From assembly GCA_944393485.1 (NCBI GenBank), contig CALYAJ010000001.1:1-63300 (forward strand): a stretch of DNA of 63,300 nucleotides, read 5' to 3'. Positions 8,093-63,231 of the stretch are shown here, piece after piece; the stretch's first letter is position 1, and each line of letters starts with the position of its first letter. This DNA is from an uncultured Clostridia bacterium. Its GTDB lineage: Bacteria > Bacillota > Clostridia > TANB77 > CAG-508. Both the position numbers and the translations under genes were made by a program. The notes beneath the pieces are model-generated. The model was not told the origin of the DNA. It ran no database searches and saw only the letters and a list, made by a program, of their open reading frames with translations.

Positions 8093-8120
8093 AAAAAAAA
8101 GATATAGCATAAGCTATATC
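8093..8120 (-). terminator. intrinsic terminator ending the spoVG transcript
   Basis: Perfect 8-bp stem GATATAGC/GCTATATC with a 4-nt loop, followed on the minus strand by T8. Confidence 0.7.
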
Positions 8121-8130
8121 TTAAATTTAT

Positions 8131-8233
8131 TGCTCCAAAAATCTAAAGATTTTTTCGGAGCAACAAGGTTAAGTTACCTTTGTTCGTGCGATTGCGAAGC
8201 AATCTGCACATGTGGCAAAGCCACTTTTCTTAT
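8131..8233 (+). repeat. structured intergenic repeat, copy A (forward orientation)
   Basis: Four consecutive hairpins: TTGCTCC..AAAAATC/GATTTTT..GGAGCAA, CAAGGT/ACCTTG, GATTGC/GCAATC and GTGGC/GCCAC. The sequence aligns with copies at 26090-26216, 61984-62074, 34447-34550 (reverse complement) and 47985-48140 (reverse complement). Confidence 0.7.
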
Positions 8234-8241
8234 AATTTATA

Positions 8242-8541
8242 TTATTCTGCTGATTCTTCAGATTCTTCGTTTTTTACTTCTTCATTATTATCAGGAGTTT
8301 CGTTATATTTTTCAATTATAGCGCTTTGAATTTTCTCCCTTGTTTCAGCATTAATTGGATGAGCTATATCCCTAAATTCGCCATTTTGAGCTTTTTTGCT
8401 AGGCATAGCAATAAATAATCCATCTTTCTCGATAACTTTAATGTCATGTACAACAAATTCGTTATCAAATGTTACAGAAGCTACTGCTTTCATTCTGTTT
8501 CCTGAATTTACTTTCTTTAAACGTACATCTGTGATTTGCAT
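8242..8541 (-). CDS. spoVG: septation/sporulation regulator SpoVG
   Basis: [11 protein letters not shown]...[18 protein letters not shown]...FIAMPS is a highly characteristic SpoVG sequence. I chose the ATG at 8541; the upstream TTG lies within the SD. Confidence 0.95.
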
Positions 8542-26089: not shown

Positions 26090-26216
26090 TAAATATGAAA
26101 AATCACCAGATTTTTCGGAGCTACAAGATCATGTTATCTATTTCCTTCCATACAAAACAATTGGTATGCATTTCGCCAAGTATCTCTTTTAAGAAATACT
26201 TGGCAAAATGTCTTCC
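26090..26216 (+). repeat. structured intergenic repeat, copy B (forward orientation, long form)
   Basis: AAAAATCACCAGATTTTTCGGAGCTACAAG... aligns with copies A and C. The distal part aligns with the reverse complement of copy E (ACAAAACAA.TGG, CTTGGCAAAAT). It ends at the hpf stop codon. Confidence 0.6.
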
Positions 26217-26219
26217 TTT

Positions 26220-26741
26220 TTATGCTTCTGGTTCTATTAAACCATAATTTTTATTATCTTTTAATTTATAAATTACATTAACTTTACCATTTTCTAAATT
26301 AACAAATGTTAAGAAAGTATTTCCTTTCTTTTCTTGTAATTTTAATTTTGCATCTTCTGGTGTCATTGGTTTTATTTCATAATATAATTCTTTTATAATT
26401 TCATTTTCTGGTTCTGCAGAATCTTCTTCTTGAGAAATTCTAATACTTGCATCTTTATCCATTTTTTCTTTTTTAGTTTTTACTTTTCTTATTTGTCCTT
26501 CTAAAATATCTATATTTTTATCTATAGATGCGTATAAATCCTTATGTGCAGTAACGGCTTTATATGTAATTCCTTGATATGCAACTCTTGATTCAGCTAC
26601 TTGCTCATTCCCTTCTACTTTGATTGTAACTGTGCCATCAAAATCATCCATATATTTTGATAATTTTTCCATCTTTTTTTCTGCATAATCTCTTATTGCA
26701 TCTGTAACTACTAAATCCTTTCCTACAACTTTTATATTCAT
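26220..26741 (-). CDS. hpf: ribosome hibernation promoting factor (long HPF)
   Basis: MNIKVVGKDLVVTDAIRDYAEKK N-terminus plus the C-terminal dimerisation domain. The ATG at 26741 follows GAGAGGAGAG. Confidence 0.9.
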   Translation of the reverse strand: MNIKVVGKDLVVTDAIRDYAEKKMEKLSKYMDDFDGTVTIKVEGNEQVAESRVAYQGITYKAVTAHKDLYASIDKNIDILEGQIRKVKTKKEKMDKDASIRISQEEDSAEPENEIIKELYYEIKPMTPEDAKLKLQEKKGNTFLTFVNLENGKVNVIYKLKDNKNYGLIEPEA

Positions 26742-34359: not shown

Positions 34360-34446
34360 AAAAGACTTTTTTAGTAATTTTATGTGGTTTTTATTTTTTT
34401 ATTACTAAATGTTGAATTCAATTTATGTAAATCCATTTAAATCATA

Positions 34447-34550
34447 TAAAATGTAGCTTCTCCAATTGTACAAATTGCTTTTCAATCGCACAGTCATAGG
34501 TAACTTCGGCCTTGTTATATACATAAAAATCTCTGATTTTCCTACATAAG
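34447..34550 (-). repeat. structured intergenic repeat, copy D (reverse orientation)
   Basis: The plus strand TGTACAAATTGCTTTTCAATCGCACAGTCATAGGTAACTTCGGCCTTGTT...AAAAATCTCTGATTTTCC aligns base by base with the reverse complement of copy A. Confidence 0.7.
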
Positions 34551-47920: not shown

Positions 47921-47984
47921 TTGTATTCTCCTTACTTTTACATTTTTTAATAAAATTCTTTATCATCTTATCATAATATAAAAA

Positions 47985-48140
47985 TTTTGCCAAGCATATC
48001 TTTGAAGTATATGCAAAATATATGCCACTCCTAAATTTTTAATTTCGTTAGATTTAACTATATGCAACGCTAAGCCACTTGTTTTGTTCGGGCAGACATA
48101 TGTAACCTAAGCTTTTTTCTAAAAAATCAAAAATTGCTTT
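47985..48140 (-). repeat. structured intergenic repeat, copy E (reverse orientation, long and degenerate)
   Basis: The reverse complement GATTTTTTAGAAAAAAGCTTAGGTTACATATGTCTGCCCGAACAAAACAAGTGG...CTTGGCAAAATTTTTAT aligns with copies A and B. Confidence 0.5.
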
Positions 48141-48166
48141 ATTTACATAATTTGGCAGTATTTTTC

Positions 48167-61983: not shown

Positions 61984-62074
61984 TGCATAGAAAAAATCGT
62001 CAGATTTTTCCAGAGCAATAAGGTTAAATTTTCCTATATTAATTCAATTGTAAACCCACTTTTCTTTTTGCATA
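61984..62074 (+). repeat. structured intergenic repeat, copy C (forward orientation, internally deleted)
   Basis: AAAAATCGTCAGATTTTTCCAGAGCAATAAGGTTAAATTTTCCT...CCCACTTTTCTTTTT aligns with copy A. It is flanked by TTTTTAT on both sides. Confidence 0.65.
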
Positions 62075-63176: not shown

Positions 63177-63231
63177 TATTATTAATAGAAATGTAACATA
63201 CATTTAATAGATTTGTAATAAAGACAATCAT

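Follow-up and report, generated by a model that had tools for sequence, protein, structure and literature searches.

The window analysed here is a stretch of 63,300 nt, positions 1 to 63,300 of contig CALYAJ010000001.1 from an uncultured Clostridia bacterium, and our subject is a short intergenic repeat for which the copy at 8131..8233 on the plus strand (copy A) serves as the reference. Copy A is full length, begins TGCTCC, ends CTTTTCTTAT, contains four hairpins, and scores 89.7 bits with nhmmer. It adjoins spoVG, a minus-strand gene whose stop codon lies at 8242-8244 and whose intrinsic terminator hairpin (8099..8122, minus strand; terminator scan) precedes, on the plus strand, the word AAATTTAT (8123..8130, plus strand) that stands directly 5′ of the element; the junction between word and element was set by comparison of filled and empty sites. 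In relatives without the element, the terminator hairpin directly follows the spoVG stop, and insertion of copy A at that junction has thus left it in the 3′ untranslated region (UTR), between the spoVG stop and the spoVG terminator. This placement arises because the elements insert directly 3′ of a hairpin-plus-T-run word. Copy A belongs to a new family of small, non-autonomous mobile repeats, i.e., to a kind of element that is already known.

Copies of the repeat are insertions, as revealed by six precise pairs of filled and empty sites. (Throughout, G000 denotes the window's own 1.8-Mb draft genome of 104 contigs, other G-numbers the genomes of relatives, and L-numbers fetched loci.) For copy A the empty partner is G010, for copy B of the window it is G003 and G010, and for another four insertions, all in relatives (L003, L004, L007, and L010), it is G000. 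For copy A, the spoVG locus was fetched from 24 genus relatives; in G010 (L015), where SpoVG is 97% identical, the sequence runs uninterrupted as CTTAAATTTAT|AATTTATATTATTCTGC, and G000 carries the 103-nt element exactly at the bar. Copy B is missing at the hpf loci of both G003 (Hpf 100% identical) and G010 (94%). Moreover, L007 and L009 are independent insertions in opposite orientations that flank a single bidirectional terminator. A Merdicola genome holds 27 pairs of full-length copies that are at least 97% identical and occupy different loci, which points to recent activity; the copies in G000 are older, with a mean identity of 77% and a maximum of 96%. A mobile element with an AT-rich target was one of two alternatives offered by the earlier note, and the comparison of empty with filled sites that it proposed has come out in favour of mobility for copies A and B and for the four insertions in relatives.

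The family extends well beyond the window. A BLASTN search of G000 with copy A returned ~25 further copies (80-89% identity over ~100 nt, E down to 1e-28), and three rounds of nhmmer yielded 43 matches with E values from 7e-29 to 2.5e-4. Alignments of 17 full-length G000 copies and of 71 distinct copies, most of them taken from other genomes, define a gene-less unit of ~105 nt. The copies are intergenic, with a G+C content of 35% versus 26.9% for the genome. In these respects the earlier description was accurate: five related stretches are present in the window, their likeness goes far beyond low-complexity A/T runs, and they are intergenic, GC-richer than their surroundings, and T-rich at the 3′ end in the forward orientation, with copies A, B, and C each facing the 3′ end of a minus-strand gene. 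The five are not equally complete. Copy D (34444..34549, minus strand; 67.1 bits) is full length like copy A, albeit more diverged, and lies between two minus-strand genes behind a hairpin and a T-rich run ending TTAT. Copy C (61984..62069, plus strand) is partial: of the unit it retains the 5′ two thirds, profile positions 1-64 (26 bits, E 1e-5), followed by a degenerate T-rich end, and TTTTTTAT stands directly before it. Copies B and E are mosaics that gave no match to the copy-A nhmmer profile and were placed through their BLAST relatives, of which each has three to four elsewhere in G000. Copy B (26090..26223, plus strand) joins the common 5′ hairpin module to another 3′ module ending CCTTTTTAT. 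Copy E (~47978..48150, minus strand; 5′ limit uncertain) joins an A-like 5′ part to a B-like 3′ hairpin and ends GGCAAAATTTTTAT; its relatives lie on G000:C10, C31, and C7, together with B-type copies. The 5′ hairpin module is thus found in B and E, as is a 3′ module common to the two, and the subfamily types A, B, C, and E represent recombined 5′ and 3′ modules. In one relative (G014:C26, L048), a lone hairpin-1 module of the repeat (GGTATAGGAAAAATCGAAGATTTTGACTATACC) stands directly after the right end of an IS200 element, which there consists of a hairpin and TTTTTTTAT.

The insertion sites obey a one-sided rule. Across 104 unique, non-tandem copies, the 5′ flank yields the logo TTTTTTAT, in which each of eight positions carries 1.1-1.65 bits, and the 3′ flank displays background A/T richness with no signal. 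Orientation is fixed, the element lying directly 3′ of TTTTTTAT and usually behind a terminator-like hairpin. The G000 sequence contains 1949 words of the TTTTTTAT type, of which 462 are intergenic; an upstream hairpin with a minimum free energy of -8 kcal/mol or lower is found at 53% of occupied sites versus 20% of 450 unoccupied intergenic TTTTTTAT sites (Mann-Whitney p = 8e-11). Not all targets are terminators: the element at L010 lies behind a tRNA 3′ end, and those at L006 and L008 lie behind palindromes belonging to a different repeat family. Taken with the filled/empty pairs, these data make it very probable that the family is mobile, non-autonomous, and targeted to terminators and to T6AT. 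A model of target-primed reverse transcription was rejected since it is the 5′ junction that is specific and the flank on the 3′ side is random.

Most sites carry TTAT on both sides of the element, and the TTTTTAT and AATTTAT flanks listed in the earlier note are real, the 5′ one being the insertion target and the 3′ one the element's own end. The sequence CTTTTCTTAT occurs at the 3′ terminus of every element, whatever the flank; the end is still TTAT where the 5′ word reads TCAT (three sites) or TTGT (one site), which argues against a true target duplication. The apparent duplication of TTAT is better read as a 5′ target word plus a fixed 3′ element end. Since the element's 3′ end (hairpin, T-rich run, and TTAT) is itself a new target, a copy recreates the site at which it inserted, and this accounts for head-to-tail arrays without spacer and with a period of ~105-106 nt on G000:C4, C47, and C2 (the last with two tandem copies at 13098-13309), as well as for threefold arrays (L093, L124). 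Read on the other strand, the target is ATAAAAAA, with which genes here commonly end, and the element end is ATAAGAAAA; a gene hit at its stop codon is therefore kept intact, as the element end supplies an identical A-TAA. At copy B, for example, the hpf open reading frame ends at 26220 and its TAA stop is supplied by the terminal TTAT of the copy. The stop codon of a convergent gene falls within the terminal TTAT in 5 of 31 G000 copies and at most 12 nt away in 9 more; at 39 of 40 copies, one or more neighbouring genes point their 3′ end towards the copy, and divergent spacers hold 1 of 40 copies versus 14% expected. Some copies are 5′ truncated and start at an internal T-run directly behind a host hairpin and T-run. 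These are best explained as slippage deletions between the two T-runs, which fits better than incomplete copying. For the host, extra 3′-UTR hairpins, extra terminator-like sites, and replaced stop codons would be by-products of insertion.

The element itself has a conserved anatomy. From the alignments of 17 and 71 copies, it starts TG(Y)ATAGG, in longer form TG(Y)ATAGGAAAAATCG, and ends GTGGCGAAGCCACTTTTCTTAT; the termini TG(Y)ATAGG and CTTTTCTTAT are non-complementary, i.e., there are no terminal inverted repeats. Between them lie four successive hairpins, H1-H4. The first, H1, is long and A/T-rich, and its outer stem begins with the element's first nucleotides; H2 is weak; H3 is GATTGC-GAA-GCAATC within an outer GTGC/GYAC stem; and H4 is GTGGC-GAA-GCCAC, which together with the T-run scores as terminator-like. 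Folded as single-stranded DNA, copy A reaches -23.8 kcal/mol (z = -5.4), in line with the hairpin-rich character assigned to it in the earlier note. The covariation check proposed there likewise had a positive outcome. In the 71-sequence alignment, standard pairs fill 96.7% of cells, versus 91.1% in column shuffles and 33-46% in slid controls. Double-sided changes occur at 11 pairs and in 115 cells, although independent compensatory events are fewer than these cell counts because many changes are common to subfamilies; the observed values were reached in 0 of 500 shuffles. The clearest compensations in H1 are AAAATC/GATTTT, AATTTC/GAAATT, and AAGTTC/GAACTT, with A-U/G-C and C-G/U-A exchanges in its outer stem, and a G-C pair of H3 has become A-U in 8 copies. 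The four hairpins are thus maintained by compensatory changes. Across pairs, G-U combinations outnumber A-C by 225 to 20 (107 to 19 without H2), from which it follows that the folded strand is the T-ending (forward) strand and not its complement; the target word is read on this same strand. At the tips of H3 and H4, this strand mostly carries GCGAAGC, the complement of which is GCTTCGC. GCGAAGC has been described as an extraordinarily stable DNA mini-hairpin (PMC13037366).

Searches beyond G000 place the repeat in a narrow group of hosts. Within the genus, 13 of 18 relatives searched carry it, with 1 to >35 matches each. The same taxonomic family contains carriers in 41 of 121 genomes and 22 of 50 genera, and none was found in 12 genomes from other families of the order. 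A pattern scan of ~185,000 species genomes returned 74 loci in metagenome-assembled genomes (MAGs) of uncultured Clostridia; carrier records include Ca. Merdicola faecigallinarum, Clostridium sp. CAG:354, UBA1742, and UMGS1570. Six matches of that scan outside Clostridia lack a profile match and were discarded as chance. Plasmid (72,556 plasmids), phage, and viral collections gave no match. As far as searched, the repeat is restricted to one family of uncultured low-GC gut Clostridia. There it is common, with up to dozens of copies in genomes of 1.2-1.8 Mb.

How might such an element move? On balance, we consider the copies best explained as ~105-nt gene-less non-autonomous mobile elements with, more tentatively, IS200/IS605-like movement in trans. 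IS200/IS605 elements have no inverted repeats, create no duplication, insert 3′ of a tetra- or pentanucleotide, and include ends-only derivatives moved in trans (PMC7290912). The repeat likewise displays no inverted repeats, apparently no duplication, a one-sided target, a fixed orientation, and strand-specific hairpins, which together match this published signature (PMC7290912). A survey has also found terminator-like sequences to be over-represented just upstream of IS200/IS605 elements (PMC13548323). We therefore propose, tentatively, that the repeat may be moved by a Y1 transposase. Movement would then proceed by single-strand "peel and paste" of the IS200/IS605 type, catalysed in trans by the Y1 (HUH) transposase, and the single-strand circle would join CTTTTCTTAT to TGTATAGG.

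The candidate mobiliser would be a resident multicopy IS200 whose insertion sites are of the same type as those of the repeat. Its trace in the window is an IS200 right end (Y1 transposase element) at 63227..63300 on the minus strand, cut by the contig end; it accounts for a GC-rich element at the window's right edge. The same 75 nt recur at 8 contig ends and have their homologue in the right end of the complete IS200 elements of relatives. The G000 assembly thus contains an unassembled multicopy IS200, represented by 8 right-end and 7 left-end junctions at contig ends and hence by at least 8 copies, and at each of the 7 left junctions a terminator hairpin and T-run immediately precede the element. 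In G005, an IS200 follows a hairpin and TTTTTTTAT and begins TG (TGGATAATGAAAA); in G033, one follows a palindrome and TTTTTAAT downstream of hpf, at a site that is empty in G007. One IS200 subtype (L048, L071) begins TGTATATAAGAAAACC and ends in a hairpin and TTTTTTTAT, like the repeat, the likeness being partial only (start TGTATATAAGAAAA, end hairpin and T7AT). The Y1 sources of G000 are these IS200 ends at 15 contig ends and one RAYT-like gene.

Several observations weigh against IS200/IS605-like movement. The resident IS200 (left end TTGGCGCTTTAGC, right end GGTGGTTATGAT) and the repeat have dissimilar ends, and the left and right hairpins of the repeat are mutually unlike, whereas the end hairpins of IS200 resemble each other. 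A search of 30 Y1 loci with the repeat profile gave no match, and Y1 genes of the genus have no copy within 1.5 kb. Copy number does not go along with Y1 genes or IS200 ends: no IS200 end was found in G010 (35 copies), though RAYT-like Y1 genes are present there, and in G007, a genome called 100% complete that holds 8 copies, no Y1 gene and no IS200 end turned up. With GC skew as a proxy for replication strand, the top strand of IS200 coincides with the G-rich strand at all 15 junctions, and the repeat is split 63:62 overall (17:25, 24:23, and 22:14). The strand bias of IS200 could stem from selection on the orientation of its gene; GC skew in G000 is extreme (mean absolute 0.23 per 20 kb) and tracks gene orientation with r = 0.99. 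Finally, a 4-bp TTAT duplication would still be compatible with most sites.

Among described elements, PATEs and the ends-only derivatives of IS200/IS605 share much with the repeat. They too are small and gene-less, without inverted repeats or duplication; their insertions lie 3′ of a short specific word and share one orientation; they have structured ends with strand-specific folding, and occupy the niche right behind terminator-like hairpins, with IS200 in the same genomes. The repeat differs from them in that its ends match no IS200 found here, its left and right hairpins are dissimilar, its target word is longer (8 nt), and it displays neither a replication-strand bias nor a dependence of copy number on tnpA. 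The bcr1-bcr3 repeats (B. cereus group A, ~155 bp) are, by analogy, the closest described counterpart. They reside in a Firmicutes host, are interspersed and intergenic with a distribution that varies between close relatives, carry a TTTAT word at their ends, display compensatory changes, and often lie in UTRs (PMC3184786, PMC6542083, PMC3446304). The present repeat is shorter (105 nt), has four hairpins where bcr forms a cruciform of two, comes from a different and uncultured clade, and provides evidence that argues against a true 5-bp duplication. No sequence similarity to bcr was detected in the search of the 72,556 plasmids, a collection expected to include bcr1-bearing B. cereus plasmids (PMC6542083). 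The pneumococcal BOX, RUP, and SPRITE elements and the enterobacterial BIMEs resemble the repeat in their modular build, tandem units, terminator-like hairpin module, and location at gene 3′ regions; RUP, however, carries inverted repeats and duplicates TA, BOX lacks a defined target, and there are no reports that any of the four inserts after T6AT or regenerates stop codons. Group IIC introns insert in one orientation directly downstream of intrinsic terminator hairpins, which resembles the targeting seen here, but the repeat has no ribozyme and no reverse transcriptase and measures only 105 nt. It also differs from REP/REPIN-RAYT systems in not flanking a RAYT-like gene. The earlier note did not recognise the repeat as a described element, and none was found in the literature searched.

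The main rival to IS200/IS605-like movement also accepts mobility and assigns it to another recombinase, one needing no replication-fork single strand; an example would be site-specific exchange between the joined element ends and the target through a common TTAT core, as loosely proposed for bcr1-bcr3. IS200 would then merely occupy the same niche behind terminators. We regard a recombinase with such a bcr1-like mechanism as fairly unlikely. It would account for the lack of replication-strand bias (63:62 versus 15:0 for IS200), for repeat ends unrelated to the resident IS200, and for a copy number out of step with Y1 genes, and the bcr repeats are likewise tied to a TTTAT word by a mechanism that is unexplained (PMC6542083, PMC3184786). 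Against this, no candidate enzyme was found, the sole IS110-type gene near a copy being a decayed remnant, and the one-sided target, lack of inverted repeats and, apparently, of duplication, and strand-specific hairpins constitute a classic HUH signature. A more radical version, in which none of the known routes applies and a terminator-seeking element is moved by another enzyme without replication-strand preference, seems decidedly unlikely, and we would be just as hesitant to suppose that this enzyme recognises the top-strand GCGAAGC DNA mini-hairpins together with the target-mimicking 3′ end. If true, the mechanism may be common to the TTTAT-associated bcr repeats of Bacillus, and the stop-codon-regenerating end would represent an adaptation by which gene termini become available for harmless insertion.

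Two further explanations correspond to the alternatives of the earlier note, a multicopy small-RNA (sRNA) family with its own terminator and an element resembling a MITE (miniature inverted-repeat transposable element). A functional RNA or cis element, be it an sRNA or a 3′-UTR stabiliser or terminator module, would explain the compensatory changes and the excess of G-U over A-C, i.e., that one strand folds, as well as the terminator-like H4 and T-run. Family copies are moreover present in short metatranscriptome contigs at summed depths like those over spoVG, and bcr repeats are often parts of UTRs (PMC3446304). The contigs, however, are unstranded and mostly represent other copies, with DNA carry-over possible. 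No conserved promoter precedes the copies, the 5′ flank being only the T-run of the preceding terminator, and many copies are antisense to the adjacent gene, such that read-through from it gives the worse-folding strand. In Rfam, the whole window gave nothing at gathering thresholds and copy A chance-level sub-threshold hits only. Insertion polymorphism between near-identical loci further indicates that copies are dispensable. An sRNA family as the primary explanation thus lacks support, given the missing promoter, the position of copies behind terminators, and the lack of an Rfam match, and we consider a functional RNA or cis element improbable. The MITE comparison fared better in its general sense. 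The repeat is small, non-coding, multicopy, and polymorphic (~105 nt, 43 matches in 1.8 Mb, six pairs), and the small mobile repeat envisaged is what we find; the terminal inverted repeats of a MITE are absent, and TTAT is not read as a duplication. A classical MITE would be a deletion derivative of an insertion sequence with a DDE transposase, duplicating the 4-bp TTAT. TTAT does flank most copies on both sides, and ATAGGAAAAATCG near the 5′ end shows an imperfect 10/13 match to the complement of the 3′ end, but this match is subterminal on one side and A/T-rich. The four sites with TCAT or TTGT 5′ of an element still ending TTAT, the 8 nt of target information on one side only, and the finding of no insertion sequence with these ends in any locus examined make a classical MITE highly improbable.

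For genome annotation, the repeats matter because of the longer 3′ UTRs, substituted stop codons, and additional terminator-like hairpins that they bring; metagenome assemblies and RNA-motif searches are probably also broken up or misled by them. With 104 unique sites and six empty/filled pairs, the family is a clean natural data set for a target rule that is one-sided and combines a hairpin with T6AT. The mimicry of the target by the element's own end, together with IS200 in the same niche, offers a testable case for Y1 trans-mobilisation, and the family may help to explain the TTTAT-linked bcr repeats of Bacillus, which so far lack a mechanistic explanation.

Two other candidates for a mobiliser were considered and set aside. 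A link to RAYT was dropped since the only assembled Y1 gene of G000 (on G000:C50) is flanked by another palindrome family (33 nt); no family-A copy was found near any RAYT-like gene among the 30 Y1 loci. An IS110/guide-RNA route was dropped because the DEDD gene is a single decayed fragment of a family that is rare in the genus. This IS110-type remnant lies 0.4 kb upstream of the best copy on G000:C26; its homologues occur in only 3 other genus genomes, with 0-5 repeat copies there, and the flanks and ends of its closest full-length relative are unrelated to the repeat. The remnant itself (G000:C26:10078-11020; L186 1504-2446) is frameshifted and without ~99 N-terminal codons. On one side of it stands an 11-nt fragment of the repeat's 5′ end (TGTATAGGAAA), and on the other, 0.1 kb past its terminator, a complete copy, an arrangement that is probably a rearrangement scar.

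The palindromes around the assembled Y1 gene form a second repeat family, a 33-nt palindrome TGAACTTTAGGGACGGTCCTTAAAGTTCA with ~55 copies in G000. A variant, TAGGGATTT..GGAC.GTCC..AAATCCCTA, has ~15 copies, for ~70 sites genome-wide and none in the window. These palindromes often occur in inverted pairs 150-2400 nt apart, and one such pair flanks the 255-aa RAYT-like Y1 gene at G000:C50:4149-5082 (L013 1027-2006), a REP/RAYT-like arrangement in a Clostridia MAG. Many copies of this second family lie just upstream of a Shine-Dalgarno sequence and start codon. At least four more families of identical contig-end sequences are present in G000 (6, 5, 3, and 3 ends); examples are the ends of C38, C43, C47, C53, C66, and C9, and of C17, C24, C42, C44, and C65, which point to other unassembled multicopy elements in this genome.

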